From the NCBI GenBank assembly GCA_963829525.1, contig CAWHIJ010000003.1:960001-1024000 (forward strand): 64,000 nucleotides of DNA, given 5' to 3'. Made by a program: the position numbers and the translations under genes. Source of the stretch: an uncultured Actinomycetota bacterium. GTDB lineage: Bacteria; Actinomycetota; Actinomycetes; JAHEKZ01. The notes under the pieces were generated by a model. That model was not told where the DNA came from. It saw only the letters and a list, made by a program, of their open reading frames with translations, and did not search any database. Of the stretch, positions 19,818 to 52,692 are shown one piece after another (the stretch's first letter is position 1; each line of letters starts with the position of its first letter).

Positions 19818-19835
19818 GTGCGCGTTCCGCTGCAT

Positions 19836-20435: not shown

Positions 20436-20632
20436 TAATCATCTATCGTCTTGGACCTCGGTCAACCCCCCGTGGTGCCAGAACCCGACGACTGTCGGGT
20501 GCGCTAGTCGGTGACGTCTTTGGTGGTGAAGTGTGCCCAGGCGGCACACTTGGAAGATTGGGCACCACGGTGACGAGCTTTGTGTCCTGGCCACCATCGT
20601 TGGTCTTGTGATCTACGAGACACGCACGGGAT

Positions 20633-20665
20633 TGGGGCGGGCGAAATCCCACTCCGCTCGCCCCA
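20633..20665. terminator. GC-rich hairpin downstream of FMN-binding gene
   Basis: TGGGGCGGGCG-N11-CGCTCGCCCCA. Confidence 0.5.
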
Positions 20666-20685
20666 TCCGAACCCGCCAGGGGTCG

Positions 20686-21162
20686 TTAGGCCTTGTTCAG
20701 GGCGGATTGAACAGACTGGGCGTACGCGTTTGAGGTAAAGGTCGCTCCCGAGGCAGCCGCGACGCTCGTCGACTGGGCGGCAATGATCTTGGACTTCATG
20801 TCGGGAATGGCCCGGTCGGTGTAGGGCTGGAAGCTGCCACCCGGGGCGATGAGCGTGGTGATGTCGGTGATGGTCGTTCCGTTCAACGTGACCTTCACCT
20901 GGACGGTGCCGTACTGGAAGCTGACGGCGTCACCAGTGATGACTTGCTGCGTGTTGGCAGTGGGGGTAGTGGCTTGATTGGGTTTAGTGGTTTTGCCGTG
21001 CGACTTCTTCGTCGGTGAGGGAGAGGCCTGAGGTGCGCCGATGTTCTCCGCGGAGGTTGGGTCGCTGTCCCCTCCTCCAGGCAGCAGATAGAGCAGAACG
21101 CCACCGGCTACCGCAAGCACAACAGCTGGGGCAACTCTTCGGGCGAAGCCGGGCTCACTCAT
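20686..21162 (-). CDS. Extracytoplasmic FMN-binding domain protein
   Basis: N-terminal TM, YGTVQVKV, and flavinylation motif ASGATFTS. Confidence 0.9.
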   Translation of the reverse strand: MSEPGFARRVAPAVVLAVAGGVLLYLLPGGGDSDPTSAENIGAPQASPSPTKKSHGKTTKPNQATTPTANTQQVITGDAVSFQYGTVQVKVTLNGTTITDITTLIAPGGSFQPYTDRAIPDMKSKIIAAQSTSVAAASGATFTSNAYAQSVQSALNKA

Positions 21163-21168
21163 TTCTGG

Positions 21169-22578: not shown

Positions 22579-22597
22579 GGTGGAGACTCCCGTACAC

Positions 22598-23464
22598 ATG
22601 ACCGATTCCGCTGGCGGACCGCTTGGAGAGTCGATGGGAACTTCGCGTAGCGACAGCGAGGTGCTGGACGGCTGGGATCATGGCATTTCCGGTTCGGTTG
22701 TGCGTGAGGACCGCGTGGTCCACGTCGAGCACATCTGGGGAACGGCCATCACCATCAACCTATCGGGAACCAAGGGATCGGAGGACCACGCACTCTCCGC
22801 AATTGACCGGGCCCGGGAGTTCTTCGTCACAGTTGACCAGACCTTTTCCACCTACAAGCCCCACACTGAGGTGGCGCTCTACCGAGCCGGTCTGGAGCGC
22901 CCGGGGCAGCAGTCGGACGACTTCGAAGAGGTTAAGCGTTCCTGCCGCCAGTTGTGCGACTTCACTGGTGGCGCCTTCGACCCATGGTCCGTCCCGGGTG
23001 GTTACGACCCGTCGGGATACGTCAAAGGCTGGGCCGTAGGACGTGCCAGCGAGCGCCTGGCCGCCGCGGGGTTCCCCGATCACCTGGTCAATGCGGGGGG
23101 TGACATCTGTGCGAGGGGAGACGAACTACCCCGATCAGGACAGGGATGGCCAACAGGGATTCTCAATCCTCATGCCCCCACGGAGGTCATCGAGGTGGTC
23201 GACTTGCGCAACGAGTCGATGGCCACGTCCGGTCGCTATGAACGTGGCGACCATGTCATCGACCCGTCGACCGGCCGACCGGCCATCGATGTCGACAGTG
23301 CAACTGTGGTCGGTCCTGACCCCGGCGCCGCCGATGCGTTGGCGTCAGCTGCGCTGGTGCGAGGAACCGACAGTGTCGCCTGGTTCGACCTGTTGGGTCC
23401 GGACTGGTCTCTGTACCTGGTGATAGGTGAGACGGCACGCTCGTTCGGGCGCGCCTTCGAGTAG
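22598..23464 (+). CDS. apbE: FAD:protein FMN transferase ApbE
   Basis: Motifs FSTYK, GAFDP, DPSGYVKGWAV, NAGGDI, MATSG, HVIDP and ADALAS. Start uncertain. Confidence 0.92.
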   Translation: MTDSAGGPLGESMGTSRSDSEVLDGWDHGISGSVVREDRVVHVEHIWGTAITINLSGTKGSEDHALSAIDRAREFFVTVDQTFSTYKPHTEVALYRAGLERPGQQSDDFEEVKRSCRQLCDFTGGAFDPWSVPGGYDPSGYVKGWAVGRASERLAAAGFPDHLVNAGGDICARGDELPRSGQGWPTGILNPHAPTEVIEVVDLRNESMATSGRYERGDHVIDPSTGRPAIDVDSATVVGPDPGAADALASAALVRGTDSVAWFDLLGPDWSLYLVIGETARSFGRAFE

Positions 23465-23473
23465 GCACACCGC

Positions 23474-24226
23474 TTACCTGTCTCTCAGCTGCCGACGTTT
23501 CGCTGGGTCCTGACCGTAGAAGTGACGGAAGACGTCGTACAGATCCGGCCGGTCTTCGGCAAGCTCTGCCCCACGCGTGAAGAAGATCTCAGTGGTGACA
23601 GCGAAAAACTCACTTGGGTTGGTGCCGGCGTACTCGGACAGTAATGCGCTCCCATGGCCCAGACGCAGAGATCGGTACTCGGCGTCGCAGACCTCGATCC
23701 ATCGCCGTCGCTCAGCTCGATCGGACAGTCGCGGGGTGCCGTCGAGCGTCCCGTCCTCGGCGTCCAGCTTGTGTGCGAACTCGTGGAAGACAACGTTGTA
23801 TCCCTGATCGGGGTGTGTCGCCTGCTGCAGGGCGTCATCCCACGCAATGAAGACCGGTCCATGTGCCGTGGTGTGACCGAGCACGGGGAGCGCATGAGCA
23901 TCGACCGTGCCGGGAATTGCGCCGGAGCGAGGCCCCCGAATCGTGATTGTTGCTGGATGGACGACTATGGCGGTGACGTTCTTGAAGACTGGATCCGGCA
24001 GGCCCACGGCGAGCAGCGCTGCATGCCCCGCGACCGTCCCACGGATGTTGTCGTCCAACGAGAACCCCCGAGAAGCTTCCCAGTTGACGCGCTTGACCAA
24101 TCTTTCGGCAACCTCTCGTAGGCGAAGCTGCTCACTCGGTGTGAGCAGTTCCCATTCGGGCAATGTCGCCGAGATCACCGCAGTGAGCCATGTCGAAGCA
24201 TGGCGGTCACGGCGACCACCGGTCAC
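23474..24226 (-). CDS. MtfA-like zinc peptidase (M90)
   Basis: NVVFHEFAHKLD and YAGTNPSEFFAVTTE. Confidence 0.9.
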   Translation of the reverse strand: MTGGRRDRHASTWLTAVISATLPEWELLTPSEQLRLREVAERLVKRVNWEASRGFSLDDNIRGTVAGHAALLAVGLPDPVFKNVTAIVVHPATITIRGPRSGAIPGTVDAHALPVLGHTTAHGPVFIAWDDALQQATHPDQGYNVVFHEFAHKLDAEDGTLDGTPRLSDRAERRRWIEVCDAEYRSLRLGHGSALLSEYAGTNPSEFFAVTTEIFFTRGAELAEDRPDLYDVFRHFYGQDPAKRRQLRDR

Positions 24227-24269
24227 CTCACGTCCTCGAGTTCCGATTCCGTCGGTCCATTCGCCATAC

Positions 24270-25301
24270 TCACCAAGTCAATCGTTCGACTTCTGCCGAG
24301 CACGGGTGGCCAGGAGCCAGCCACAGCGACCGAGTTTCGGGCTCGCAGACCATGGCAAACAAGATGGTGGCGCCTTCGTCACCCTGGGCAGGTTCAGGAT
24401 GCACGCAGATGTCTTGACCTTCGGCCGCATGGTCGGAGAGCAATCCGATCATGCCGTCGACAGTGGGGGCTGTGACCCCTGCGAGTGCGCGGGCGCGGGC
24501 GAGTCTCGATCGGCTTCCCTCCGACGGGTCGCAGGACGCGGCCGCCACTGTCGCGTCGATTGCGTGGTTCGTGTGTTCGGTGACCGAGAGGTAGGCGGCA
24601 GTGGTGGCTGTCGTCTCGATCGCGCACGTTTGGCCACCCGGGAAGGCACACAGGTAGGAGTAGCCCCCGGCGCGACCTTCTGGGGTTGCACGAGCGAAGG
24701 CGTCCTTAAGGTCGCGGGAGTCCAGCACGTTCCTGGCCACGAGCGCTCGGGGTATCCCGACCCGTTCATCGGTCGCTGTCAGTGACATGGTCCCGAACGC
24801 GCCACCCAGCTCGTTCAGTCCGACCAGCGGCAGAGTCCCCGCGACGATCGGCGCAAGAACCGCTGGTCCATCGTTCGGTACATCCAGAACGACACCAACG
24901 GCGCCGTCATCACCGGCATACCACTGCTCGTTGTGCCCGAGAAGGGTGTTTTTGGTCGACCGAAGAACGACGTCGGTGCATCGCTCAAGTGGGGTGACGG
25001 ATGGCGTGCCGAGCTCGACAATCCCGTACACCTCTTCGAAGGCGTTTGCGAAGAAGAGGTCGAGGAAAGGCTGCTCGGCCCCGTCGGCCATTCCGCGCAC
25101 CTGTGCGAGCAGGTGCGGTACGGCGTCGCCCGAGGCGTCCAGGTAAGGAGCGAGGATGTCCTTGAGGTCACCGCGACCGATCTTGTGCGATTCGAGGTAA
25201 CGACTGTTGAAGGCAACCGATCGAGCGGTGGCCTCAGCAAAGGCCTCACCAATCAGGGCCCCTCGCTCGTAGGGGGTTCCCGAAACTCGAACCGGCTGCA
25301 C
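24270..25301 (-). CDS. C45-family autoproteolytic acyltransferase/hydrolase (Ntn)
   Basis: GTPYERG, the Cys nucleophile site ERCT, GHNEQW and HTNH; GTG start 6 nt after TAGGGT. Confidence 0.85.
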   Translation of the reverse strand: MQPVRVSGTPYERGALIGEAFAEATARSVAFNSRYLESHKIGRGDLKDILAPYLDASGDAVPHLLAQVRGMADGAEQPFLDLFFANAFEEVYGIVELGTPSVTPLERCTDVVLRSTKNTLLGHNEQWYAGDDGAVGVVLDVPNDGPAVLAPIVAGTLPLVGLNELGGAFGTMSLTATDERVGIPRALVARNVLDSRDLKDAFARATPEGRAGGYSYLCAFPGGQTCAIETTATTAAYLSVTEHTNHAIDATVAAASCDPSEGSRSRLARARALAGVTAPTVDGMIGLLSDHAAEGQDICVHPEPAQGDEGATILFAMVCEPETRSLWLAPGHPCSAEVERLTW

Positions 25302-25392
25302 GAGGTCACCCTAGGTGAGGGACGTACGCTCGCGGCGCCTTTGGGGGGTTGACGGCGTACTCTGGGCAGACGGTGAGCAATGAGGAGGCGTG

Positions 25393-25569
25393 ATGTTCGA
25401 GTACCTGATCGGCGGTCTGGTCATCGCCTTTCTTGTGGTTCTGGTTCTCGGGGCTGTCACCGGTCGTGTCAAATCGCGAAGCTGCTGCAGCATCGCTGAC
25501 CCTCGACAGGATCTCCGTATGCGCGCCGCCTTTGAGGGTGAGTCTGCGCCACCGGGCGCTACATCCTGA
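25393..25569 (+). CDS. 58-aa single-TM protein with Cys-Cys motif
   Basis: GAGGAGG RBS; reads MFEYLIGGLVIAFLVVLVLGAVTGRVKSRSCCSIADPRQDLRMRAAFEGESAPPGATS. Below the ORF-track cutoff. Confidence 0.7.
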   Translation: MFEYLIGGLVIAFLVVLVLGAVTGRVKSRSCCSIADPRQDLRMRAAFEGESAPPGATS

Positions 25570-28015
25570 TGCGCAGTCCTTGGGGATCGTACGGCGCTCG
25601 TCGATGTAACGACGCGGTGCAGACGGCGCCTCCGATGTTGACCTCGTACGTCTCAGAGTCCAGGTAGTCAGTGGTCACGGCGCCTCCATCGCTCCGCCAG
25701 ATGTAGGCGAGCGCAACGCACGCACCGACGGTCTCTCCCCATGCGGCGGAGGTCACTTGTCCGACCGCCTCTCCGTTGCGAAGTACAAGTTCTCCACCCC
25801 ACATCATGACGTTGGGATCGTCTAGGACGATCGAGACCAGCTTCCGTCGTGGACCGGCGCGAGAAGCCTCCTCAAGCGCGGCTCTGCCGATGAATTCGAT
25901 GTCGGTGCGCAGCTTGCAGGCGAAGGTGAGACCTGCGTCGAGTGGTGTGTAGTCCGGCGTCAGGTCTGTGCCGAAGGCGCGGTATCCCTTCTCCAGCCGG
26001 AGGGAGTTGATCGAGTAGTAGCCGGCAGGAACCAGGCCGAAGCCCGTCCCGGCGCTCATAAGCATCTCGTAGACGTCCACCGCGAACTCCACGGGAACGT
26101 AGAGCTCCCATCCGAGCTCGCCGACGTACGTGATGCGGGTGGCACGGACTGTCGCCTGGCCGAGGTCCACCTCGCGGCTGGACGCGAACGGGAAGCCCCC
26201 GTCAGAGAAGTCAGATCGGGAAAGGGTCTGCAGCAGGTCGCGGGACCGCGGGCCCATTACCGCTAAGACGGCGTAGAGCGCGGAGACATCAACGGTGCTT
26301 ACTTGCTCTTCGGGGTCGGCATGACGCCGGAGCCAGTCGATGTCGCGGACAATGGATGCAGCCCCCGTAACGAGCAGGTACTCATCTTGTGCAATGCGGG
26401 TGACGGTGACGTCAGCCTCGTATCCGGCACGGTGGTTAAGCATCCCCGTGTACACCGCTCGTCCCACCGGAGTTGCCACGTCCGCCGTGCAGACGCGTTG
26501 CAGCAGCGATTCGGCGTCGCGTCCTTGGACCAGAACCTTGCCGAAGGAGGACTGGTCGAAGAGGGCCACGGCCTGGCGCGCCGCGCGCTGCTCCACGGCT
26601 GACCACTCGATCCAAGTTGGCTTGCCCCAGGTGTAGTCCAATGCGGGATTCGTATCCGCTGGCGCGAACACATTGGCCCGCTCCCACCCCATCTTTGAAC
26701 CGAAGACTGCACCTTGTGCTTCCAACAAGTGGTGAACCGATGATCGGCGAAAGGGTCGTGCCGTCGCGAGTTCGCGGTTGGGCCACGGGATCGCATAGTG
26801 CAGTCCCAGTACTTCGGCGACGCGGCCATGCAGCCACTGTCGATTCCCGTTGAAGGACGCGAAACGCCGGATGTCGACTGCTGTGAGGTCCGAGGTTGGC
26901 TCGCCGTTCACGATCCACTCGGCGAGAGCTCGACCCGCTCCGCCCGCCGATGCGATGCCGACCGAGTTGAACCCCGCGCCGACGAAGAAGTTTCTGAGCT
27001 CGGGAGCCTCGCCCAGAATGAACTGGTTGTCAGGGGTGAAGCTCTCCGGTCCGTTGTAGAACTTCTTGATTCCGGTCTCGCGCAACGCGGGGATCCGCAG
27101 CAGGGCATTCTCCATCAGAATCTCGAAGTGCTCCCAGTCCTCCTCGAGTAGCTGGAACTCAAAGGGGTAGGGGATCTGGTCTGGTGAAACCCACGGCTTT
27201 GCCTCTGGCTCGAAGCCACCCACGACCAAGCCGCCTACTTCTTCCTTCATGTAGGTGTAGCCATCGGGGTCTCGGAGGATCGGCAGGTCACGGTGCACTC
27301 CCTCGATCTGTTCGGTGACGACGTAGAAGTGCTCAGCGGAATGAAGGGGAACAGTGACGCCCGCCTGGGCCGCGATCGCGTTCGCCCACTGACCGCCGCA
27401 GTTGACGACGACCTCAGCCTCGATGTCGCCGCGGTCCGTCTGAACACCAGAGACCGATCCCTTGTCTGACAGGACTCCGAGCATTCGAACCCCCTCGGCG
27501 ATCGTGACACCGCGGTTTCGTGCGCCCTTTGCCAGCGACTGGGTGACATCGGTCGGGTTGGCTGTGCAGTCACCGGGAAGCCAGATCGCGCCCAGCAGAT
27601 CGTCTGTGGCCAGAATGGGATAGAGCTCTTTGGCGCGACCTGGCGTGATGAGCTCACACTCGAGGTCGTATGCCTCGGCCGCCGCCGCGGTGCGTTGCAG
27701 CTGCACCATACGGTCTGGTGTGCGGGCGACTGTGACGCCTCCACACCGCTTCAGGCCGGTGCCGAGGCCGGTCTCCTGCTCAAGGCGCTCATAGAGCGAG
27801 GCGGAGTACTGCACCAAGCGTGTGCCGCTCTCGGTCGCGCGTAACTGACCAACGAGGCCTGCGGCATGCCAGGTAGTACCGCCAGAGAGGCGTCCCTGCT
27901 CAATGAGGACAACGTCGGTGCAGCCGAGCTCGGCCAAGTGGTATGCGACGCTCGTGCCGACGATCCCTCCGCCGATGATGACAACCTGGACTCGAGCGGG
28001 CAGATCTTGGGTCAT
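25559..28015 (-). CDS. FAD-dependent oxidoreductase with GcvT (THF-binding) domain, sarcosine/dimethylglycine dehydrogenase family
   Basis: Motifs IGGGIVG, GTTWHAAG (covalent FAD His), NGPESFTPD, RITYVGELGWE and LRLEKGY. Confidence 0.93.
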   Translation of the reverse strand: MTQDLPARVQVVIIGGGIVGTSVAYHLAELGCTDVVLIEQGRLSGGTTWHAAGLVGQLRATESGTRLVQYSASLYERLEQETGLGTGLKRCGGVTVARTPDRMVQLQRTAAAAEAYDLECELITPGRAKELYPILATDDLLGAIWLPGDCTANPTDVTQSLAKGARNRGVTIAEGVRMLGVLSDKGSVSGVQTDRGDIEAEVVVNCGGQWANAIAAQAGVTVPLHSAEHFYVVTEQIEGVHRDLPILRDPDGYTYMKEEVGGLVVGGFEPEAKPWVSPDQIPYPFEFQLLEEDWEHFEILMENALLRIPALRETGIKKFYNGPESFTPDNQFILGEAPELRNFFVGAGFNSVGIASAGGAGRALAEWIVNGEPTSDLTAVDIRRFASFNGNRQWLHGRVAEVLGLHYAIPWPNRELATARPFRRSSVHHLLEAQGAVFGSKMGWERANVFAPADTNPALDYTWGKPTWIEWSAVEQRAARQAVALFDQSSFGKVLVQGRDAESLLQRVCTADVATPVGRAVYTGMLNHRAGYEADVTVTRIAQDEYLLVTGAASIVRDIDWLRRHADPEEQVSTVDVSALYAVLAVMGPRSRDLLQTLSRSDFSDGGFPFASSREVDLGQATVRATRITYVGELGWELYVPVEFAVDVYEMLMSAGTGFGLVPAGYYSINSLRLEKGYRAFGTDLTPDYTPLDAGLTFACKLRTDIEFIGRAALEEASRAGPRRKLVSIVLDDPNVMMWGGELVLRNGEAVGQVTSAAWGETVGACVALAYIWRSDGGAVTTDYLDSETYEVNIGGAVCTASLHRRAPYDPQGLRIRM

Positions 28016-28063
28016 CAAGGGCCCCCGTCGACGGAGTTATGGCGAGGAGCGTAGCCGCGAAAA

Positions 28064-28072
28064 GGTCTAGAC
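28064..28072. promoter_or_regulatory. GntR/HutC-type operator-like site upstream of GcvT-family gene
   Basis: GGTCTAGAC; a related core recurs at 33202, 33233 and 28902. Confidence 0.55.
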
Positions 28073-28080
28073 GGAACAGG

Positions 28081-28899
28081 TCAGGGAGTTTCGTCGGTTC
28101 GCCGAACATCGACTCCGAGACCGGTGCGGAACGTGATGCGCACCTTGTCGGGGCGGAAGAGGTCGCGCGCGTACTCGACGGGCAGACCGGCGGCGGTAGA
28201 TGCGGTTCGTTCAATAGCCATGAGCGCGCTCGTCGCCTCGACTCCAAGCATCTCGGCCTCGGAGGCACCTGCGATTATCGGTTCGAGGTTCTCGGACGCG
28301 ACATACGGCGTCTGGCCGTAGTGGCGACGAAGCAGGTCGTACAGCGAACCGGTCAGTCGGTGGGTGAGAAGGTCAGGAAAGACCTCAGCCGGGAAGTACG
28401 ACCGTTCGAGTGCAAGTGGTTGACGACGCGCTGTACGCACTCGGACGATCTCGTGGACATCATCGCCTCGCGGGATTGACAGTGCGCCAGCCACAGCAGC
28501 GGTGGCGGGAAGGGTGAGGGCTGAGACCACACGTGCCCCCGCTCGGATGTTCGCTCGGCGCATCTGCTCGGTGAAGCCGGCCAGGCCGGTCAGGTCACAT
28601 TCGATACGTGGCTCGCTGACGTAGGTGCCTCCCGACCTTCCAGGTCTGCGGACAACGGTTCCCTGAGCTTCCATCGTCGACAGGGCCTGCCGCAGCGTCA
28701 TTCGGCTGACGCCGAGTGCGGCAGCGAGGTCGCCTTCCCGTGGAAGGCGGTCACCGCTGACAAGATCGCCGCGTCCAATAACGTCGATCAGCCAGCGTTC
28801 GATCTGTGCATGCAGCGGAGATCCCGCTGTGGCTGCAAACGCGGGTACCGACGCGAGCCATTGTGGTTCGGACTCTGCGTTTGCGTCGTTGGGGCTCAC
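28081..28899 (-). CDS. GntR-family regulator (HutC/UTRA subfamily)
   Basis: RLPREGDLAAALGVSRMTLRQAL HTH; UTRA domain with GSLYDLL and PVEYAR. Confidence 0.93.
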   Translation of the reverse strand: MSPNDANAESEPQWLASVPAFAATAGSPLHAQIERWLIDVIGRGDLVSGDRLPREGDLAAALGVSRMTLRQALSTMEAQGTVVRRPGRSGGTYVSEPRIECDLTGLAGFTEQMRRANIRAGARVVSALTLPATAAVAGALSIPRGDDVHEIVRVRTARRQPLALERSYFPAEVFPDLLTHRLTGSLYDLLRRHYGQTPYVASENLEPIIAGASEAEMLGVEATSALMAIERTASTAAGLPVEYARDLFRPDKVRITFRTGLGVDVRRTDETP

Positions 28900-28919
28900 G
28901 AGTCTATATGCTAGGCCGC

Positions 28920-29612
28920 ATGACACCGGTAATCGGCGTTTCTTGCTATGGAGAGCCGGCGCAATGGGGTGCCTGGAGTACAGATGCAGTGCTGATCCAC
29001 CGTGAGTACGTGGCCGCCATCCAGGGGGTGGGAGCGGCCGCAATACTGGTTCCACCCGGTGTCACGGCAGAGACCGTGCGCTCGACCGTTGAGCGGGTCG
29101 ATGGGCTGGTCATCGCCGGTGGCCCCGACATCGACCCTGATCTCTATGGCGCCGTGGCGCATGCCACCACTGATCGGCCGCGCGCCGACCGTGACCAGAC
29201 TGAGCTGTTGCTCTATCGCACAGCGAGGGAACGCCAGATCCCCGTGCTCGGCATCTGTCGGGGAATGCAGATGATGGCGGTGGCCAGTGGAGGCTCCCTG
29301 GTGCAAGACCTGCCATCGGCCGGGTATGGCCTCCTGCACCGCGAAGCTCCCGGCGCATTTCTTGACCACGGAGCGACGTTCACGGACTCCTCCTTGGTGG
29401 CTCAGATCTTGGGTCGTGAGTTGGTTGTCAACTCGAGCCACCACCAGTGCGTTGACGATCCGGGGAGCCTCACGGTGACGGGCCGCGCTGAAGACGGAAC
29501 CATCGAGGTACTTGAAGATCCCGAAGCCGACTTCGTTCTAGGGGTGCAGTGGCATCCGGAGATGACTGACGACCGACGCCTCTTCGCGGCCCTCGTTGAC
29601 GCTGCTGGCTGA
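28920..29612 (+). CDS. Gamma-glutamyl-amide hydrolase (peptidase C26, PuuD-like)
   Basis: Motifs GGPDIDP, LGICRGMQ, NSSHHQ and GVQWHPE; ATG 7 nt after TATGCT. Confidence 0.92.
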   Translation: MTPVIGVSCYGEPAQWGAWSTDAVLIHREYVAAIQGVGAAAILVPPGVTAETVRSTVERVDGLVIAGGPDIDPDLYGAVAHATTDRPRADRDQTELLLYRTARERQIPVLGICRGMQMMAVASGGSLVQDLPSAGYGLLHREAPGAFLDHGATFTDSSLVAQILGRELVVNSSHHQCVDDPGSLTVTGRAEDGTIEVLEDPEADFVLGVQWHPEMTDDRRLFAALVDAAG

Positions 29613-29618
29613 TTCCGG

Positions 29619-30383
29619 CTACAGCGGGGTGACGTACGCCCCCGAGATTCCGCCGTCGACAAGGAAGTTGCTCGCGGTGATGAAGGATGAGTCGTCGCTG
29701 CCCAGGAACGCGACCGCCGCGGCGATCTCACTTGCTTCGGCGAATCGCCCAACAGGGATGTGGACCAGACGACGGGCCGCCCGCTCGGGATCTTTGGCAA
29801 AGAGCTCGATGAGCAGCGGGGTGTTCACCGGTCCGGGGGAGAGGGCGTTGACTCGGATTCCCTCGCGAGCAAACTGAACGCCGAGTTCGCGGCTCATCGC
29901 TAGCACTCCGCCCTTGGATGCGGTGTAGGAGATCTGCGAGGTGGCCGCTCCCATCGTCGCCACGAATGACGCCGTGTTGACGATCGAGCCTTTGCCTTGG
30001 CGCTGCATGTAGGGGATGACTTCCTTGCAGCAGAGGTAGACCGACGTCAGGTTGACACGCTGCACGCGCTCCCACGCCTCGATACCGGTGTCGAGGATGG
30101 AGTCGTCGTCGGGAGGGGAGATTCCGGCGTTGTGGAACGACACGTCGATCGACCCGTAGGTGTCGTGTGCTGTCTTGAACATCCGGGCGACGTCATCAGC
30201 GTTGGTGACGTCTGCCTGAACGGCAATGCCACCTACCTCGTCGGCAGCGGACTGACCGGCCTCGAGGTTCATGTCGACGATGACGACCTTGGCGCCCTCG
30301 GAGGCGAGCCGGAGGGCTGTTGCACGCCCGATGCCGCTTGCCCCTCCGGTGATGACGGCAGTGCGGTCGGTGAAGCGGTCCAC
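29619..30383 (-). CDS. Short-chain dehydrogenase/reductase
   Basis: Motifs TGGASGIG, NAGI, YTASK and PGPVNT. Confidence 0.93.
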   Translation of the reverse strand: MDRFTDRTAVITGGASGIGRATALRLASEGAKVVIVDMNLEAGQSAADEVGGIAVQADVTNADDVARMFKTAHDTYGSIDVSFHNAGISPPDDDSILDTGIEAWERVQRVNLTSVYLCCKEVIPYMQRQGKGSIVNTASFVATMGAATSQISYTASKGGVLAMSRELGVQFAREGIRVNALSPGPVNTPLLIELFAKDPERAARRLVHIPVGRFAEASEIAAAVAFLGSDDSSFITASNFLVDGGISGAYVTPL

Positions 30384-30386
30384 AGT

Positions 30387-31754
30387 TCAGCCTTCCGTTG
30401 AGATGAACACGTTCTTGACCTCGGTGAAGGCCTCTAGCGCGTCGGGCCCGAGTTCTCGGCCAAGGCCGGACTTCTTGAAGCCGCCGAACGGCGTCCAGTA
30501 ACGCACCGAGGAGTGCGAGTTGACCGAAAGGTTTCCGGCATCGATGCCACGGCTGACCCGGAGTGCACGGCCGACGTCTCGGGTGAAGATGGAACCGGAC
30601 AGTCCGTACTCGCTGTCGTTGGCGATGCGGATGGCATCGGCCTCGTCATCGAACGGAACGACCGCCACAACGGGCCCGAAGATCTCCTCGTGCAAGACCG
30701 GGTCCTCCGCACTCTGCGGGAGGACAACAGTTGGTGGGTACCAGTACCCCGGCCCGTCTGGCACCGATCCCTTGATCACGACGTTGGTGGCATCTGTGAC
30801 GAAGGACGCAACGCGGTCACGTTGGCCGGCGCTGATGAGCGGACCCATCTGCGATGTCTCACGGCTTGGGTCCTCGACGCGAACGCCCTGCACCGCCGGT
30901 TCCAGCAGCTCAAGGAACGAGTCAAGCGCTGACCGCTCCACCAGGATTCGCGATCGCGCGCAGCAGTCCTGGCCCGCGTTGTCGAAGACGGCATAGGGCG
31001 CGGTCGCGGCAGCGGCTTTGAGATCAGCGTCGGCGAAGATGACGTTGGCGCTCTTGCCACCAAGCTCGAGCGTGACGGGTTTAACCTGTCGTGCGCAGCC
31101 TTCGGCAACCCTCGTCCCGACCTCGGTCGATCCGGTGAAGACCACCTTTGCAACGTCTGGGTGAGTGACGAAGCGCTCGCCAACAACGGACCCGCGTCCG
31201 GTGAGCACCTGGAACACGTGCTCGGGCAGGCCGGCCTCCAAGGCGAGCTCGCCGAGCCGCATCGCGGTCATCGGAGTGAGCTCGGCCGGCTTGAGAACCA
31301 CGGTGTTGCCGGCGGCGAGGGCGGGGGCAAAGCCCCAGCCGGCGATGGGCATGGGGAAGTTCCAGGGAACGATGACTCCGACGACACCCAGTGGTTCTCG
31401 GAAGGTGATGTCTACGCCGCCGGCTACTGGGATCTGGTGCCCCAGCAGCCGCTCAGGTGCGCCCGCGTAGTAGGCGAGGACGTCGCGCACATTGCCGGCT
31501 TCCCATCGAGCATTGCTGATGGTGTGTCCGGCGTTGGGAACTTCCAACTGGGCAAGCTCTTCGATGTGGTCATCGACGACCGCTGAGAACCGTCGCAGCA
31601 GTCGGGCGCGGTCTCCTGGCGCGACGTGTCTCCACGTGGCAAAGGCTCGCTTGCCCAAGGCGATGGCGTCGTCGGTCTCTTCGACCGAGAGCGACGGAAC
31701 CGAGGTGATGACCGTTTCGGTCACCGGGTTGATGACGTCGTGCATGGCACTCAC
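30387..31754 (-). CDS. Aldehyde dehydrogenase
   Basis: Motifs PWNFP, FTGS, LELGGKS, NAGQDCC and EEIFGPV. Confidence 0.95.
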   Translation of the reverse strand: MSAMHDVINPVTETVITSVPSLSVEETDDAIALGKRAFATWRHVAPGDRARLLRRFSAVVDDHIEELAQLEVPNAGHTISNARWEAGNVRDVLAYYAGAPERLLGHQIPVAGGVDITFREPLGVVGVIVPWNFPMPIAGWGFAPALAAGNTVVLKPAELTPMTAMRLGELALEAGLPEHVFQVLTGRGSVVGERFVTHPDVAKVVFTGSTEVGTRVAEGCARQVKPVTLELGGKSANVIFADADLKAAAATAPYAVFDNAGQDCCARSRILVERSALDSFLELLEPAVQGVRVEDPSRETSQMGPLISAGQRDRVASFVTDATNVVIKGSVPDGPGYWYPPTVVLPQSAEDPVLHEEIFGPVVAVVPFDDEADAIRIANDSEYGLSGSIFTRDVGRALRVSRGIDAGNLSVNSHSSVRYWTPFGGFKKSGLGRELGPDALEAFTEVKNVFISTEG

Positions 31755-33127
31755 ATTCGCTCGAAGCTGCGGATTCGCTCCCAGTCGGTGACTGAGCGAT
31801 CAAAGGCGTCGACCTCGATGCGACCCATGTTGGCGTAGTGCGCCTGCACGTCCTCGCCGAAGGTCTCGGCCACCCACTCCGAGCGCTCCCAGAGCTCGAC
31901 AGCGTCCACCAGTCGCCAAGGAGCGCGCTCGCCCCCGGCCTGGTACGCGTTACCTGCAAACTCGTCGCGCAGCTCGAGCTTGTTCTCGATGCCAGACAGG
32001 CTCGCTGCCACCATCCCGGCGACCGCAAGGTAGGGGTTGACGTCTCCGCCGGGAATTCGGTTCTCGACCCGGAGCCCGGCGCCACGACCGACCAGTCGGA
32101 GCGCGCACGTCCGGTTGTCGCGTCCCCACTCGATGGAGGTGGGGGCGAAAGAGCCAGGTGCAAAGCGTTTGTAGGAGTTGATGTTCGGTGCGAAGAGCAG
32201 GGAGAGCTCGCGCAGATGGGCCAGCTGTCCTGCGATGAACTGGCGTCCGACGTCGGACATCCCGTGTGTGGTGTCAGCAGGGTCGGCCATCACCATGGCG
32301 CCGTCGGTTCCGCGGAATGACAGGTGGATGTGGCAGGAGTTTCCCTCACGTTCGTTGTACTTGGCCATGAAGGTGAGGGCGTAGCCATCTTGGGCGGCAA
32401 TCTCTTTGGCTGCTGTCTTGTAGACGACGTGGTTGTCGCAGGACTTCAAAGCAGATTCGTACAGGAAGGCGATCTCATGCTGGCCGAGGTTGCACTCGCC
32501 CTTGGCGCTTTCGACCTGCAACCCTGACTCCGACATCGCCAGGCGAATCCGGCGCAACAGCGGCTCGACTCGCGAAGTGCCGATGATCGAGTAGTCGACG
32601 TTGTAGCTGTTCGATGGGGTGAGGTCTCGGTAGTGGCGCTCCCAAGCGTCCTCGTAGGAGTTGTTGAACAGGATGAACTCGAGCTCGGTGCCGACGAAGG
32701 CCTCCATACCGGCGTCAGCGAGCCGGGCAAGCTGCCTCTTCAGCACTTGACGGGGCGAGGCAACCACGTCGGTGCCATCGAGCCACTGGACGTCGGCCTG
32801 CACCATGGCGGTCTTGGGATGCCATGGCACGAGTCGAAGCGTGTCCAGGTCATGTGCCATGACGAAGTCGCCGTAGCCGGCATCCCAGCTGGACATCTGG
32901 TAGCCGTCGACGGTGTTCATGTCGACGTCGACGGCCAGCAGGTAGTTGCATCCCTCGGTGCCGTGGGCGAGCACGTGGTCGACGAAGTATCGGGCGTCCA
33001 GGCGCTTGCCCTGAAGGCGCCCCTGCATGTCGGTGATCGCAAGGATGACCGTGTCGAAACGGCCGTTGGATACCCCGGTCTTCAGCTCGTCGATGGACAG
33101 CGGCGCGCCGTGCATCTGGTCTGTCAT
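31751..33127 (-). CDS. Glutamine synthetase-like gamma-glutamyl-amine ligase (GlnA4/PuuA type)
   Basis: Motifs DMQGRLQGKR, ELEF, KGECNLGQHE, GNSCHIH, NSYKR, DNRT and ENRIPG; in an operon with ALDH and SDR. Confidence 0.92.
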   Translation of the reverse strand: MTDQMHGAPLSIDELKTGVSNGRFDTVILAITDMQGRLQGKRLDARYFVDHVLAHGTEGCNYLLAVDVDMNTVDGYQMSSWDAGYGDFVMAHDLDTLRLVPWHPKTAMVQADVQWLDGTDVVASPRQVLKRQLARLADAGMEAFVGTELEFILFNNSYEDAWERHYRDLTPSNSYNVDYSIIGTSRVEPLLRRIRLAMSESGLQVESAKGECNLGQHEIAFLYESALKSCDNHVVYKTAAKEIAAQDGYALTFMAKYNEREGNSCHIHLSFRGTDGAMVMADPADTTHGMSDVGRQFIAGQLAHLRELSLLFAPNINSYKRFAPGSFAPTSIEWGRDNRTCALRLVGRGAGLRVENRIPGGDVNPYLAVAGMVAASLSGIENKLELRDEFAGNAYQAGGERAPWRLVDAVELWERSEWVAETFGEDVQAHYANMGRIEVDAFDRSVTDWERIRSFERM

Positions 33128-33201
33128 CCCACATCCCTTCGGCTGCACACACCCTGACACGAGCGAGGACGCCCGGAAGGGAGGATGAGCGGGTGTATCG
33201 A

Positions 33202-33243
33202 TCTAGACCGAAAACCTACCTTTCTGATCATTACTGGTCTAGA
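33202..33243. promoter_or_regulatory. Pair of inverted GntR/HutC-type operator sites
   Basis: TCTAGACC (33202-33209) and ACTGGTCTAGA (33233-33243) lie between the divergent ligase and kinase operons. Confidence 0.6.
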
Positions 33244-33271
33244 GTCCGGGGCCATCGCACTGGGAGGGTGT

Positions 33272-34201
33272 GTGGCGGTCTTGACAGAGGATGGCGTCAG
33301 CGCTGAGTTACTGGCGCGCCTTGACGCAGTCCCAGAGTTGGCAGACCGATCCGACGTCGTCGTGCTCTCCGGTGGGTTGACCAACCAGAACCTCAAGGTG
33401 ACGACGCCGGTTGGCGTCTACGTGGCGCGGCTGTCGACTCCCGAGAGCTCGCTCCTGGCCATCGACCGCGCCCATGAGCACGTGAACTCGGTGGCCGCCG
33501 CTCAGTCGGGGGCTGCGCCATCGGTGGTTGCCTATGTGGCGGAAGCGAGCATCCTCGTCGTCGACTACGTCGACGGTCGGACGTGGGACAGCGTCGACAT
33601 CCTGGTGCCCGCCAACGCTGGCCGAATCGCAGAGGTGTGCCATTTGCTGCACGCTGGCCCGGCCTTCGGAAACGACTTCAACATGCTTTTGCTCCAGCGC
33701 CACTACCTGACGATCGTCCAGGAGCGCGACCTTCGGCTCCCCGATCGGTACTTGGAATTCGCGGGGCATGCGCAGGCGATCGAGCAAGCTCTCGCGACGC
33801 GCCCGGTGGCTGCGGCACCCTGCAACAACGACCTGCTCGCCGCCAACTTCATCGATACCGGCGACCGGGTGTGGCTCATCGACTACGAGTACTCCGGGAA
33901 CAACGATCCGTTCTTCGAGATCGGCAACATCTGGAGCGAGGCCTCAGGGACGCCGGACGATCTCGCCCGGCTGGTGACCGCCTACGCGGGGCGACGTTCC
34001 CGCGCCTTGACGGCTCGTGCCTGGTTGTGGGGGTTGATGAGCAAGTACGGATGGACGCTCTGGGCGTCGATTCAGGACGGAACGAGCGAACTTGAGTTCG
34101 ATTTCTGGGCGTGGGGGATGGAGAAGTACGAGCGCGTGATCGCCGAGTTCGATTCAGCAGATTTCGGCCGTGCGTTGGAGGAGGTGCGCCAGAGCGACTG
34201 A
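33272..34201 (+). CDS. Choline/ethanolamine kinase-family phosphotransferase
   Basis: LSGGLTNQN, Brenner motif CNNDLLAANF, and LIDYEYS; GTG start after GGGAGG. Confidence 0.9.
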   Translation: MAVLTEDGVSAELLARLDAVPELADRSDVVVLSGGLTNQNLKVTTPVGVYVARLSTPESSLLAIDRAHEHVNSVAAAQSGAAPSVVAYVAEASILVVDYVDGRTWDSVDILVPANAGRIAEVCHLLHAGPAFGNDFNMLLLQRHYLTIVQERDLRLPDRYLEFAGHAQAIEQALATRPVAAAPCNNDLLAANFIDTGDRVWLIDYEYSGNNDPFFEIGNIWSEASGTPDDLARLVTAYAGRRSRALTARAWLWGLMSKYGWTLWASIQDGTSELEFDFWAWGMEKYERVIAEFDSADFGRALEEVRQSD

Positions 34202-34324
34202 CGTGTGGTGGAGAAACCGGTTCCGCGTGTCGCAAGACGAGAACCGTCTCCAGTGCCACACTGCGACCAAGGTCACGGCGCCGCCGTGGCTGACGCTGGG
34301 GGTTTCGGAAAGAGGAGTCACCAG

Positions 34325-36022
34325 ATGGCGGACATTTCAAGGTTGACCGATGACGAACAGAAGCTCGCAGATCTCGGATACAAGCAAGAGCTGAGCCGCT
34401 CTTGGTCGGGCTTCTCAAACTTCGCCATCTCGTTCTCGATCATTTCGATCCTGGCCGGCTGTTTCACCACATTCTACTTCGGGTGGAACAACGGTGGGCC
34501 TATTGCAATAGCGCTCGGTTGGCCACTGATCTCGGCATTCATCCTGATCATCGGCTTCTGCCTGTCGGAGATGGTCTCGGCCTACCCGACGTCCGGAGGG
34601 ATCTACTGGTGGGCCTCCAAGCTCGGCAGCGTCAAGGCTGGCTACTACACCGGCTGGCTCAACCTGGTCGGGCTGATTGCGATCGTTGCCTCGGTGGCCT
34701 ACGGCACCGCCACGTTCATGGACTACTCGTTGTCGAGGTTCAGCGACTCGTGGGCCGAGGGGTACGACCTCACCCGAGTCTTCTACATGTTCCTCGGAGT
34801 CTTGGTCTTCGTCTCGCTGGTCAATATCTTCTCGAGCCACCTGCTTGCGGTCTTCAACAACATCTCGGTGTGGTGGCACGTCATCGGAGCCAGCGTCGTT
34901 GTCATCATCCTCTGGCTCTTCCTGCAGGATGGCGCCAGTCACTGGAACGTCAGCGATGTCTTCACCGGAACGGTTAACAACACCGGTGGGCTCTACGAGG
35001 GGTCGACCAGCAACTTGGGCTTCTGGTTCTACGTCCTGCCGCTCGGGTTCCTGCTGACTCAGTACACGATCACCGGTTATGACGCTTCGGCCCACTTGTC
35101 CGAAGAGACCCACGGCGCTGCGGATGCGGCCGCCAAGGGCATCTGGCGGTCGATCTTCTACTCAGCGATCGGTGGCTGGATCCTGCTGCTGTCGTTCCTG
35201 TTCGCGGTGCAGGATGCGGACGCTGTCACCGCTGGAGGCGGAGGGGTCCAGGTCATCTTCGACCAGGCACTGTCGCCGACGATGTCGGGGCTAGTGCTGC
35301 TCATCGCGACGATCGGCCAGCTCTTCTGCACGACTGCCTGCCTCACGTCGGCTTCGCGCATGCTCTTCGCATTCAGCCGCGACGGTGCTGTGCCGGGTGC
35401 GAAGTACTGGTCGAAACTGAACGGCCAGAAGACTCCGGTGTACGCGGTGCTGGCAGTGGCGGTCTCCGGGCTGATCCTGACCCTTCCCGCCCTGTGGGAG
35501 GTCAACATCGGAACAGCGGAGGAGCCGATCATCACGGTGACCGCGTTCTTCGCCGTCGTCTCGATCGGGGTGCTCGGCCTCTATCTCGCCTTCGCGATTC
35601 CGATCTTCTACCGGTGGCGTGCTGGCGCCTCGTTCAAGCAGGGATCGTGGAACCTGGGGAACAAGTGGAAGTGGATGGCGCCGATTGCCATCGCCGAGAT
35701 CCTGATCACCTCGGTCTACTTCATCCTGCCGCTCTACCCTGCTGGAGCGCCAGGGTTCCTCCGAGGCTTCCTTGGGGCTCCCGGGACCGACGAGGTCCCG
35801 TTCGACTGGAAGTTCGTCAACTACGCGCCGCTGGTGCTCGGGGCCATCTTCCTCCTGCTCTGGATCGGCTGGCATGTATCGGCCAAGCACTGGTTCACCG
35901 GGCCCAAGCACACGATCGACCTGCCTGCCGGTGTGACGAGTGCAGACGAGCTGGCCCTCGAGCACGAGCACGACGGGTTCCTCACTGGGGAGCACCAGAA
36001 GCACCATCCGGACGACAAGTAG
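34325..36022 (+). CDS. APC-superfamily amino acid/amine permease
   Basis: Motifs LGYKQEL, FSNFAISFSIIS, SAYPTSGGIY and GYDASAHLSEET; GAGGAG RBS. Confidence 0.93.
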   Translation: MADISRLTDDEQKLADLGYKQELSRSWSGFSNFAISFSIISILAGCFTTFYFGWNNGGPIAIALGWPLISAFILIIGFCLSEMVSAYPTSGGIYWWASKLGSVKAGYYTGWLNLVGLIAIVASVAYGTATFMDYSLSRFSDSWAEGYDLTRVFYMFLGVLVFVSLVNIFSSHLLAVFNNISVWWHVIGASVVVIILWLFLQDGASHWNVSDVFTGTVNNTGGLYEGSTSNLGFWFYVLPLGFLLTQYTITGYDASAHLSEETHGAADAAAKGIWRSIFYSAIGGWILLLSFLFAVQDADAVTAGGGGVQVIFDQALSPTMSGLVLLIATIGQLFCTTACLTSASRMLFAFSRDGAVPGAKYWSKLNGQKTPVYAVLAVAVSGLILTLPALWEVNIGTAEEPIITVTAFFAVVSIGVLGLYLAFAIPIFYRWRAGASFKQGSWNLGNKWKWMAPIAIAEILITSVYFILPLYPAGAPGFLRGFLGAPGTDEVPFDWKFVNYAPLVLGAIFLLLWIGWHVSAKHWFTGPKHTIDLPAGVTSADELALEHEHDGFLTGEHQKHHPDDK

Positions 36023-36034
36023 TCCTGTTCTGAC

Positions 36035-36072
36035 CAGAGGGAGGGTGGCCCGGAAGGGTCGCCCTCCCTCTG
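36035..36072 (+). terminator. Intrinsic terminator hairpin
   Basis: CAGAGGGAGGGTGGCCC-GGAA-GGGTCGCCCTCCCTCTG. Confidence 0.75.
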
Positions 36073-36100
36073 TCGTTCCGTTCGCAGCTACCTTTGAGGC

Positions 36101-36778
36101 ATGGGTCGTCCTACGCGCTGGGTCACTGACACCGACGAAAATCACTCTCAGTGGTACATCGAGCGTTTCCGCGGGATGGAGACCGAGGGTGTCGACCTGG
36201 GCGGCGAAGCCCGCCTACTGGACGCGATGCTCCCGCCGCGGTCGCGAATCCTCGATGCCGGTTGCGGACCCGGTCGAGTCGGGGCACGGCTGCACCAGCG
36301 TGGCCATGACGTGGTCGGGGTCGACGCCGATCCTGAGCTGATCGCCGCCGCCCGCGAGGATCACCCTGGCCCGCAGTGGCTGGTCGCCGATCTTGCCGAG
36401 CTCGACCTCGCCCGACATGGTGTCATCGAGCCATTCGCCGGTGCGGTATTGGCGGGAAACGTAATGGCTTTCGTTGCTCCGGGCACAGAGTCGGACGTCC
36501 TCACCGCGATCGCCGCTCACCTCGCCCCCGACGGCATCCTCGTCGTGGGTTTTGGCGCCGATCGTGGCTACGCACTGGACGACTTCGACCGGCACGCAGG
36601 ATCAGCTGGTCTTCGCATGGAGCACCGGTTCGCCACCTGGGATCTACGTCCGTGGCAGCAGTCCTCCGACTTCGCGGTCACGGTGCTTCGGGCCCGCATC
36701 CATGAGACGGTGGCGCCTGAATCGACCCCGGGAGTGAACGATGAACAAGGCTTTCCGCAAGTACCTGACCGACGCTGA
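36101..36778 (+). CDS. Class I SAM-dependent methyltransferase
   Basis: ILDAGCGPGR and VGVDAD; TACCTT 6 nt before the ATG. Confidence 0.9.
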   Translation: MGRPTRWVTDTDENHSQWYIERFRGMETEGVDLGGEARLLDAMLPPRSRILDAGCGPGRVGARLHQRGHDVVGVDADPELIAAAREDHPGPQWLVADLAELDLARHGVIEPFAGAVLAGNVMAFVAPGTESDVLTAIAAHLAPDGILVVGFGADRGYALDDFDRHAGSAGLRMEHRFATWDLRPWQQSSDFAVTVLRARIHETVAPESTPGVNDEQGFPQVPDRR

Positions 36779-37235
36779 GGTCCAGCTGATCGAGGAGACC
36801 AAGCCGGCAGCTCTGGCCGAGCTCGACGAGGATGAGCTCGGAGACCTGCACGATCGTGTTCGGCGGGCCAGCAGTAAATACCGCAAGTTGCACCGAAGGC
36901 AGGCAAGTGCTCAGGTGCGGAGCGACCGTGGCAGGGGAAAGGCGGCTGCCAAGAACCCGAGGTCGGCGGTTAAGGCGGAAGTCTTCGAGGACGCACTGGC
37001 GCGGGTGAGTCGAGCCCTGAGCAAGGCGGCGAAGGCGTCAGCCGCCGAGCTGAAAGCAAAGCGTTTGGCGGCTGCAAAGGCCGGTTCTGCAGGGCCCAAG
37101 AAGGCTCCGGCCCCAGGTCAGGGACCTGGTAGTGGCCGCACCGCTGCGAAGAGGCGGTCGCCCGTCGTGAAGAAGAAGAATGCCGCCACTCTCGCAGCCG
37201 GCTCTCGGAGGCAGGCCAAGCGCGACGCCCGTTAG
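36741..37235 (+). CDS. Basic, Lys/Arg/Ala-rich hypothetical protein
   Basis: Good codon bias and a GGGAG RBS; motifs LDEDELGDLHDRVRR and KAEVFEDALARVS. Confidence 0.75.
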   Translation: MNKAFRKYLTDAEVQLIEETKPAALAELDEDELGDLHDRVRRASSKYRKLHRRQASAQVRSDRGRGKAAAKNPRSAVKAEVFEDALARVSRALSKAAKASAAELKAKRLAAAKAGSAGPKKAPAPGQGPGSGRTAAKRRSPVVKKKNAATLAAGSRRQAKRDAR

Positions 37236-37445
37236 GCGAGCCTCACTTGGTTGGCTAGGACTCGTGTGTCTCGAACCGGTGACGACGGGTTGCGACTTCG
37301 TAACGTCATGGCGTGGGGTAGGTCCCTACCACGACCCACCGCTGTTATGGTGCGGGCGACTGAGTAGGTCTATCCAGGCCGCACAGTCGCTGGATCAGGG
37401 ACCCTGAGCCGGCGTAGGTACCCCCATCGATCAGGGAGAGATGCA

Positions 37446-52670: not shown

Positions 52671-52692
52671 GAGGCTTCCTTTGTCTCTTTGG

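Follow-up and report, generated by a model that had tools for sequence, protein, structure and literature searches.

In a 64,000-nucleotide stretch of DNA from an uncultured Actinomycetota bacterium (hereafter the window; source genome 2.96 Mb, three contigs, about 64% G+C), a set of genes for the conversion of ethanolamine to glycine is probably joined to a kinase/demethylase gene pair under one repressor, an arrangement that would allow the use of N-methylated ethanolamines. The genes lie between positions 24270 and 36022, where Pfam and NCBIfam scans found all nine genes that an earlier note on this DNA had named. Their grouping exceeds chance, because the gene of the kinase and that of a flavoprotein with fused DAO and GcvT domains (DAO-GcvT) occur together in 75 of 92 loci of other genomes, and because one operator motif is common to the promoters of the cluster. 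With a probability that we put at roughly 45 per cent, the cluster would function as a single two-module regulon, in which N-methylated ethanolamines are phosphorylated, demethylated to phosphoethanolamine, dephosphorylated, γ-glutamylated and oxidized to glycine. Within this scheme we infer the substrate, the phosphorylated intermediates, the order of the steps and the role and effector of the repressor.

Loci containing relatives of the kinase gene were collected from Actinomycetota, and the collected loci were then searched by tblastn with the window proteins at fixed identity thresholds. Thirteen of the 92 loci came from 41 related genomes and 79 from species-representative genomes, the latter being the collected part of at least 593 kinase loci confirmed in the species-representative scan; 64 of the 92 loci had at least 8 kb of sequence on both sides (full-flank loci). 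The collection includes loci of Nonomuraea, Mycolicibacterium, Nakamurella, Planosporangium, Nocardioidaceae, Nanopelagicales, Gaiellales and Solirubrobacterales; the orders and groups covered by the named loci are Streptosporangiales, Mycobacteriales, Micromonosporales, Propionibacteriales, Nanopelagicales, Gaiellales and Solirubrobacterales. In 63 of the 75 loci possessing both genes, the DAO-GcvT gene was located not more than 300 bp from the kinase gene (median gap 72 bp), and it was present in 58 of the 64 full-flank loci. The following numbers were obtained for the other genes in the full-flank loci: 16 (ligase), 16 (aldehyde dehydrogenase, ALDH), 16 (short-chain dehydrogenase/reductase, SDR), 13 (C26 hydrolase), 26 (HutC-type regulator) and 12 (permease). 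In all 92 loci the ligase was found 25 times, the ALDH 21 times, the SDR 20 times and the C26 hydrolase, together with the ligase set, 16 times. SDR orthologues (72-95% identity) followed the ALDH gene in all 20 cases, HutC orthologues (40-62% identity) accompanied the kinase/DAO-GcvT pair in 30 loci, and the permease gene adjoined the kinase gene in 25 loci, some of which had no ligase set. Unbiased clustering of all called open reading frames (ORFs; 1,370 proteins from 93 loci including the window) revealed no other family of comparable frequency. The conserved core consists of the kinase and the flavoprotein, often accompanied by the HutC regulator and the permease, and the GlnA4-type set of ligase, ALDH and SDR genes joins it in about a quarter of the loci. 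Among cultured carriers, Nakamurella silvestris (L031) and Planosporangium thailandense (L044) possess the whole set, and Nonomuraea offers examples with the pair only.

The same association was seen among close relatives. Seven genomes of the window's genus, the source genome included, encode the kinase, and in every one of them a flavoprotein orthologue (78% identity or more) is present, whereas the other seven (completeness 69-99%) lack both. The ligase was detected in 26 of the 41 related genomes, namely in all 15 that were kinase-positive and in 11 of the 26 that were kinase-negative; one of the genomes, the unpublished G033, has neither kinase nor ligase and is not used to support any claim. 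The related genomes are not independent, and these presence/absence data are given as patterns, with no statistical test. The kinase and the flavoprotein are thus conserved with each other, as 75 of the 92 loci and their joint gain or loss in the genus indicate. The expectation of the earlier note that they would also be conserved with the ligase operon held in part: the ligase was there in 16 of the 64 full-flank loci and in each kinase-positive genome, but the island as a whole is not a conserved unit.

The second line of evidence is the shared operator. The window contains only three TCTAGA sites, all of them half-palindromes resembling GGTCTAGACC and all located in the cluster, within about 170 bp of promoter DNA. 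One (GGTCTAGACG, 28064-28073) lies between the stop codon of the regulator gene and the start codon of the flavoprotein gene, about 45 bp upstream of the latter, and the other two (GATCTAGACC, 33200-33209, and GGTCTAGAGT, 33236-33245) lie in the 111-bp region between the divergent ligase and kinase genes. As TCTAGA occurs no more than 55 times in the 2.94 Mb of the chromosome, three such sites in about 170 bp are far from expectation. The site at 28064 is conserved in loci L003 and L004, and is found also at the DAO-GcvT promoters of L016, L018 and L029; both sites of the ligase/kinase gap are conserved in L003-L005. In a cross-genome check, which was independent of the discovery of the motif in the window, 35 of the 40 exact GTCTAGAC sites in the 92 loci fell in 280-bp zones upstream of core genes, although these zones make up 4.4% of the DNA. 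Such a site was present at a core promoter in 19 of the 30 HutC-positive loci and in 9 of the 62 that lack the regulator.

Perfect GGTCTAGACC palindromes were found in the kinase/flavoprotein gap of Nonomuraea, between the ligase and kinase genes in L016, L018, L019 and L093 (one site each in the last two), and in both the kinase/flavoprotein and the permease/ligase gaps of L035 and L046. In L016, L018, L044 and L046 sites occur upstream of the ligase gene as well as upstream of the DAO-GcvT gene. Because the same palindrome is present at the window promoters and recurs at ligase, kinase and flavoprotein promoters in distant genera, it points to one HutC-type regulon. The regulator encoded in the window (28081-28899, minus strand, start taken from the translation) has the GntR helix-turn-helix and UTRA domains of the HutC subfamily, with palindromic sites of the GGTCTAGACC type at the candidate promoters, and is likely to be the repressor. 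In other genera the ligase set is accompanied by a GntR protein of the FCD type, and a Pfam scan found no such regulator in the window; the ligase operon appears to have been drawn, in this lineage, into the HutC regulon of the kinase module. A scan of positions 24000-37500 for consensus promoters gave 0 sites, and terminator-like sites were below the shuffle mean.

The flavoprotein (25559-28018, minus strand, 819 amino acids) comprises DAO, FAO_M, GCV_T and GCV_T_C domains according to Pfam. In a PDB search it matched rat dimethylglycine dehydrogenase (DMGDH) with 459 bits and the dimethylglycine oxidase (DMGO) of A. globiformis with 373 bits. Alignment showed that it retains the histidine for covalent attachment of FAD (TWHAAGL) and the equivalents of His225 and Tyr259 of DMGO (residue names as given in the available text and reference list of PMC5082570). 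It thus looks catalytically competent, and its sequence places it among the folate-linked N-demethylases of the DMGDH/DMGO family. The four-domain architecture (about 820 amino acids), the FAD-binding histidine, the catalytic histidine and tyrosine and the folate domain are all shared with the rat and human DMGDH and with DMGO, enzymes which, according to the same source, act on N-methyl amino acids. Unlike these, the window enzyme belongs to a clade whose members are always linked to the kinase, and it has no adjacent genes for electron transfer flavoprotein (ETF) or betaine metabolism.

Three DAO-GcvT paralogues are encoded in the source genome. One of them (C3:648385-650904) scored 558 bits against A. 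globiformis DMGO, compared to 373 for the window enzyme, and is part of a betaine-type island (G000:C3:642000-660000, locus L100) that also encodes an OpuAC binding protein, a permease, an MttB-family methyltransferase, a pterin-binding methyltransferase, an MTHFR-C-like protein, a GntR protein of the FCD type and the β and α subunits of ETF. DMGO orthology together with a betaine/ETF context was therefore found for this paralogue and not for the window enzyme. Since the paralogue in the betaine island scores higher to DMGO and the tree separates the clades, the window flavoprotein is not the dimethylglycine oxidase orthologue of this genome. The earlier note had named as a counter-case that the flavoprotein might be a plain sarcosine or dimethylglycine dehydrogenase; the DMGO orthologue is a different protein, but the sequence alone would be compatible with either of these substrates.

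The tree was built with FastTree from 64 kinase-linked and 22 unlinked DAO-GcvT sequences, after removal of 19 of the 83 proteins in the DAO-GcvT cluster, whose lengths were below 760 or above 900 amino acids. The window enzyme was placed in a clade of 20 tips (clade a, support 1.0), all kinase-linked, which is sister to 14 unlinked paralogues. A second all-linked clade, with 42 tips and a support of 0.998, stands next to eight DMGO-like sequences, and one more kinase-linked pair branches apart. Each clade is either wholly linked or wholly unlinked, so that kinase linkage characterizes entire clades. Position 178 (Arg) and position 442 (Arg or Lys) are basic in all kinase-linked clades, whereas the unlinked sequences have Glu and Ser/Thr, respectively; at position 178 the residue is Pro in rat DMGDH and Thr in DMGO. 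As determinants of specificity these two positions are a lead only.

The kinase is encoded by an ORF at 33185-34201 (plus strand) that matches the Choline_kinase/APH type (PF01633, 61.6 bits, cut-off 29). Because its homologues are 306-310 amino acids long and GGAGG precedes the GTG codon at 33272 by four bases, translation most likely starts at 33272, which leaves the 111-bp divergent region mentioned above. The nearest solved structures found in a PDB sequence search were 3dxq (1.4e-34) and, as a weak match, LicA of Streptococcus pneumoniae (4.7e-16, 62 bits). Aligned with LicA, the protein shows the P-loop GGLTNQN, a Brenner-type motif CNNDLLAAN, in which His is replaced by Asn, and the choline-kinase motif LIDYEYSGNNDPFFEIGNIWSE. 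The equivalents of the LicA residues Thr29 (P-loop), Asp176, Tyr197, Glu213, Trp251 and Trp254 are retained and Tyr268 is replaced by Trp (the numbering of the LicA PDB chain is offset by +20). In LicA the quaternary amine is caged by Tyr197, Trp251, Trp254, Tyr268 and Glu213 (residue roles and motif definitions from the available text of PMC4364537), and the alignment indicates that the window kinase retains this choline-binding pocket. With LicA and with 3dxq, which bears only the family-level name choline/ethanolamine kinase family protein, it has in common the protein-kinase-like fold, the P-loop GGxTNxN, a Brenner-type motif, the choline-kinase motif and a cage of aromatic residues with a Glu at the rim. 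It differs from LicA in the Asn of the Brenner motif and in its setting, which is catabolic, beside a demethylase, whereas LicA belongs to an operon for phosphocholine decoration. No NCBIfam equivalog was reached (GntI 160 bits against a cut-off of 357, thiamine kinase 84 against 299), and we predict that the protein is an N-methylethanolamine kinase. At least 7,833 homologues were found in metagenomes, where public names are generic. Fourteen longer proteins that matched the kinase, nine of them with both DAO and choline-kinase domains, were not counted as evidence of gene fusion, because each was a singleton from one contig and in none did the kinase match occur together with a match to GCV_T; overlapping genes joined by frameshifts may account for them.

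The second module comprises the ligase, ALDH, SDR and C26 hydrolase. The ligase (31751-33160, minus strand; Gln-synt_C, 323 bits) is a putative glutamine synthetase (GS)-like γ-glutamyl-amine ligase resembling GlnA4, which stayed below the NCBIfam cut-offs for type I GS (223 against 429 bits), type III GS (236 against 470) and γ-glutamylputrescine synthetase (199 against 650), and whose best PDB matches were 11zs (408 bits) and 5dm3 (387 bits). It is followed by the genes of the ALDH (30387-31754, minus strand; Aldedh, 518 bits, no NCBIfam equivalog reached) and the SDR (29619-30383, minus strand; NF004713, 474 bits against a cut-off of 404), and then by that of the C26 hydrolase on the plus strand (28920-29612, start taken from the translation). 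The latter is a class-I amidotransferase-like γ-glutamyl hydrolase (Peptidase_C26, 197 bits) in which the Cys, His and Glu motifs are present, with GICRG and WHPE, and which gave 86 bits with the PuuD equivalog (cut-off 266). The cluster thus has the composition of a GlnA4-type cluster: a ligase distinct from true GS and from γ-glutamylpolyamine synthetases, with adjacent SDR, Aldedh and Peptidase_C26 genes. The SDR is predicted to be a γ-glutamyl-ethanolamide dehydrogenase, the ALDH a γ-glutamyl-aminoacetaldehyde dehydrogenase, and the C26 hydrolase is predicted to release glutamate and glycine. The permease (34205-36022, plus strand; AA_permease_2), a member of the APC superfamily of the amino acid/choline transporter type whose best NCBIfam match was TIGR00907 (250 bits, cut-off 598), is the predicted importer of the amino alcohol.

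This set resembles the ethanolamine cluster of Streptomyces coelicolor (SCO1610-SCO1615). As far as the available text of PMC6529630 goes, in that cluster, too, the gene of a GS-like ligase precedes those of a dehydrogenase and an aldehyde dehydrogenase, a γ-glutamyl amidohydrolase is encoded and a repressor gene adjoins the ligase gene; an amino-acid-type permease, such as is found in the window too, lies near the GlnA4 cluster in other Streptomyces. The same text reports an assay for GlnA4 only, gives the later steps as predictions and proposes as the hydrolase a protein of the formylglutamate amidohydrolase family. The view of the earlier note that ligase, SDR, ALDH and C26 hydrolase constitute the established S. 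coelicolor route is therefore correct for the ligase and goes too far for the remainder, as only GlnA4 was assayed there and the hydrolase family is not C26. The window also differs from the cluster described in PMC6529630 in possessing a kinase and a DAO-GcvT flavoprotein and in the C26 family of its hydrolase. Its regulator is of the HutC type, with GGTCTAGACC operators, whereas other genera in the sample have an FCD-type GntR protein beside the ligase.

In the two-module regulon that we propose, the first module would comprise the kinase, the DAO-GcvT flavoprotein, the permease and the HutC regulator. Mono- or dimethylethanolamine would be imported by the permease, and the kinase would phosphorylate its hydroxyl group, providing the cationic amino alcohol with an anionic handle. 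To our knowledge, which draws in part on PMC5082570, all characterised DAO-GcvT enzymes use anionic substrates. The flavoprotein would then remove the N-methyl groups oxidatively from the phospho-ester, passing the one-carbon (C1) units to tetrahydrofolate and yielding phosphoethanolamine, from which a phosphatase, encoded beside the kinase in some lineages, would free ethanolamine. In the second module ethanolamine would be converted through γ-glutamyl-ethanolamide and γ-glutamyl-glycine to glutamate and glycine, as proposed for S. coelicolor, and the inducer of the HutC repressor would perhaps be a phosphorylated intermediate. That the kinase/DAO-GcvT pair in itself represents an undescribed "phospho-base demethylation" pathway, in which di- and monomethylethanolamine are phosphorylated and the methyl groups are stripped oxidatively from the phospho-esters onto tetrahydrofolate, is a reading that we hold tentatively, at somewhat less than even odds.

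Genes accompanying the pair in other lineages bear on this scheme. A HAD-IA hydrolase gene was found beside the kinase gene in 10 of the 92 loci, in the three lineages Mycobacteriaceae, Gaiellaceae and Conexibacter, and in Gaiellaceae it is directly downstream of it; the presence of a kinase and a phosphatase in one unit argues for another step between them. Seven of the 92 loci have two DAO-GcvT paralogues around the kinase, which is expected if two demethylations follow each other. In Planosporangium thailandense (L044, 15067-17307), where ligase, kinase and demethylase genes form a complete cluster, the second DAO-GcvT gene is followed by genes for a serine dehydratase (α and β domains) and a purU-like formyl-tetrahydrofolate deformylase. 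Serine dehydratase and purU-like genes usually accompany pathways in which glycine and methylene-tetrahydrofolate are produced.

Several observations weigh against the proposed regulon, and some of them fit other explanations. There is no phosphatase gene in the window cluster, the best match to the HAD hydrolase in the genome being 29% identical and located far away. No phosphatase would be needed if the flavoprotein demethylated free N-methylethanolamines to ethanolamine and the kinase, acting on ethanolamine or on the methylated amine, produced a phosphorylated effector for the HutC regulator or trapped the compound in the cell. Such a division of labour would account equally well for the co-conservation and for the shared operator, and many HutC-family regulators sense phosphorylated metabolites. 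We nevertheless consider it unlikely, given that a HAD hydrolase is encoded inside the kinase operon in some lineages, that the genes of the kinase and the flavoprotein frequently overlap or adjoin, as those of consecutive enzymes do (with the median gap stated above), and that the characterised members of the fused family, as far as we know them, all act on anionic substrates. The catalytic set of the flavoprotein is the ordinary one of DMGDH-like enzymes, and sarcosine or dimethylglycine as substrate is compatible with its sequence. The enzyme could then be an ordinary sarcosine/dimethylglycine dehydrogenase, fed by sarcosine made from N-methylethanolamine through the γ-glutamyl route or by imported dimethylglycine derived from choline, and the kinase would serve a separate purpose. 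Its best PDB matches, its conserved catalytic residues and its position adjoining the ligase set in the window would all agree with this. We give the idea little weight, however, as the DMGO orthologue is another paralogue, in a betaine island with ETF genes, kinase-linked and unlinked sequences form separate clades, and the flavoprotein tracks the kinase (75 of 92 loci) and not the ligase (both in 16 of 92); within the genus it occurs exactly where the kinase does. The kinase-linked flavoproteins are not monophyletic, and substrates may differ between the clades.

The substrate may also be another N-methylated hydroxy-amine that undergoes the same chemistry, for example an N-methylaminopropanol, N-methyl-diethanolamine or a head group that an α/β-hydrolase frees from a lipid or ester, the ligase set taking the resulting primary amino alcohol. 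The sequence does not specify the substrate, the kinase remains below every NCBIfam equivalog cut-off (GntI being the example given above), and an α/β-hydrolase and a protein of no known family precede the kinase in genera g2-g5, suggesting an esterified precursor. Against this, the choline pocket of LicA is retained, the permease is of the amino acid/choline type, and the ligase set matches the ethanolamine cluster of S. coelicolor as described in the available part of its source; such a substrate is rather improbable, though not to be dismissed lightly. The two modules are separable, since the kinase-flavoprotein pair occurs without a nearby ligase set in 59 of the 92 loci and the ligase without the flavoprotein in the examined flank in nine. 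Taken to its limit, this would mean that the modules are unrelated and mere neighbours in this lineage, and indeed they are apart in most loci and lie on different contigs or far from each other in genomes G001 and G018. Yet the same operator precedes both in the window and in L016, L018, L035, L044 and L046, the window lacks the FCD-type regulator that goes with the ligase set in other genera, and all 15 kinase-positive genomes have the ligase, so that a chance neighbourhood is very improbable. It has to be kept in mind that kinship among the loci inflates every count, and the binomial P value of the operator enrichment as well, and that the TCTAGA motif was noticed first and counted afterwards. 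Literature searches yielded no paper on the kinase-flavoprotein pair and no assay of either enzyme.

The regulon for N-methylated ethanolamines, which we continue to prefer, would combine enzyme families that are already known with a downstream route that is known as well; the pairing is new and the substrates are probably new. For its kinase-flavoprotein half no matching pathway was described in the literature searched or in the available text of a 2022 review (PMC9397018), in which the terms "ethanolamine kinase", "methylethanolamine" and "phosphoethanolamine" have 0 occurrences. The searches likewise found no described aerobic bacterial route for methylated ethanolamines. The phospho-base intermediates proposed here are those of the phosphoethanolamine N-methyltransferase route of plants, nematodes and Plasmodium, but that route consists of methylations dependent on S-adenosylmethionine (SAM), whereas the proposed one would run in the opposite direction by oxidative, folate-linked demethylation. 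In kinase-plus-phospholyase routes, represented by the mycobacterial 1-amino-2-propanol kinase and by ethanolamine-phosphate phospho-lyase, an amino alcohol is phosphorylated before it loses its nitrogen, as would be the case here; the phosphate, however, would here serve recognition by the demethylase and not as a leaving group. A class-III aminotransferase-like lyase was not among the conserved neighbours in the ORF clustering of the 93 loci.

Of the remaining genes in the region, the C45/AAT gene (24270-25301, minus strand; NF040521, 133 bits against a cut-off of 85) is unrelated to the cluster. None of the 92 loci had a match to it (E not above 1e-10, coverage at least 50%) or to the neighbouring M90 peptidase, the contigs of the three closest relatives ending before the position of C45, and the suspicion of the earlier note that it may be unrelated was thus borne out. 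The 257-bp gap between the C45 and flavoprotein genes contains an ORF of 58 codons on the plus strand (25393-25569), which encodes one predicted membrane helix and a Cys-Cys motif and overlaps the stop codon of the oppositely oriented flavoprotein gene. Downstream of the permease gene a class-I SAM methyltransferase gene (36101-36778) and a 164-codon ORF of no known family follow on the plus strand (36101-37235). The methyltransferase was rejected as a member of the unit, as it trails the permease only here and in the three nearest relatives; in L007 the ligase gene has a different methyltransferase gene next to it.

About 21 kb before the window, at G000:C3:937288-939841 (L002), a protein of no known family, an α/β-hydrolase and a distant paralogue of choline-kinase fold are encoded in a row, the paralogue being 28% identical to the kinase of L008. 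The same no-family protein and α/β-hydrolase precede the kinase/flavoprotein/ligase cluster in L008, L010, L012, L013 and L014, which represent other genera of the family. The two proteins may release the amino alcohol from an ester. For the no-family protein there was no match in Pfam, NCBIfam or the PDB, and only "hypothetical" clusters were found in the Atlas.

Elsewhere in the window, the gene of a heavy-metal P-type ATPase is broken into two ORFs that overlap (56384-58592, minus strand; HMA and E1-E2 domains, then the hydrolase domain) and a SulP transporter is separated from its STAS domain (60927-62862, plus strand), either by frameshifts or by assembly indels. Unrelated units at 18987-23464 and 45936-52748 encode a tyrosinase with DUF6529, a ferric-reductase-like protein with an FMN-binding protein and ApbE, and the respiratory nitrate reductase narGHJI.

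Methylated ethanolamines occur as intermediates in the metabolism of phosphatidylcholine and are formed when choline is demethylated anaerobically. If the proposed regulon is correct, the pathway would be widespread: at least 593 loci in species representatives and at least 7,833 metagenomic kinase homologues would belong to it, across Actinomycetota and including streamlined freshwater lineages. It would give a function to a large family of proteins now called "phosphotransferase" or "thiamine-kinase-like" and likewise to the "dimethylglycine dehydrogenase-like" proteins of at least two clades, whose present annotation would be wrong. The pathway would be a catabolic mirror of the phosphoethanolamine methyltransferase route, and its flavoproteins would be the first DAO-GcvT enzymes with phosphorylated substrates. 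The palindrome and the HutC protein would constitute a testable operator-repressor pair, and the GlnA4 ethanolamine module would have been recruited into a larger regulon. For models of soil and freshwater Actinomycetota, methylated ethanolamines would represent an additional source of C1 units and nitrogen.

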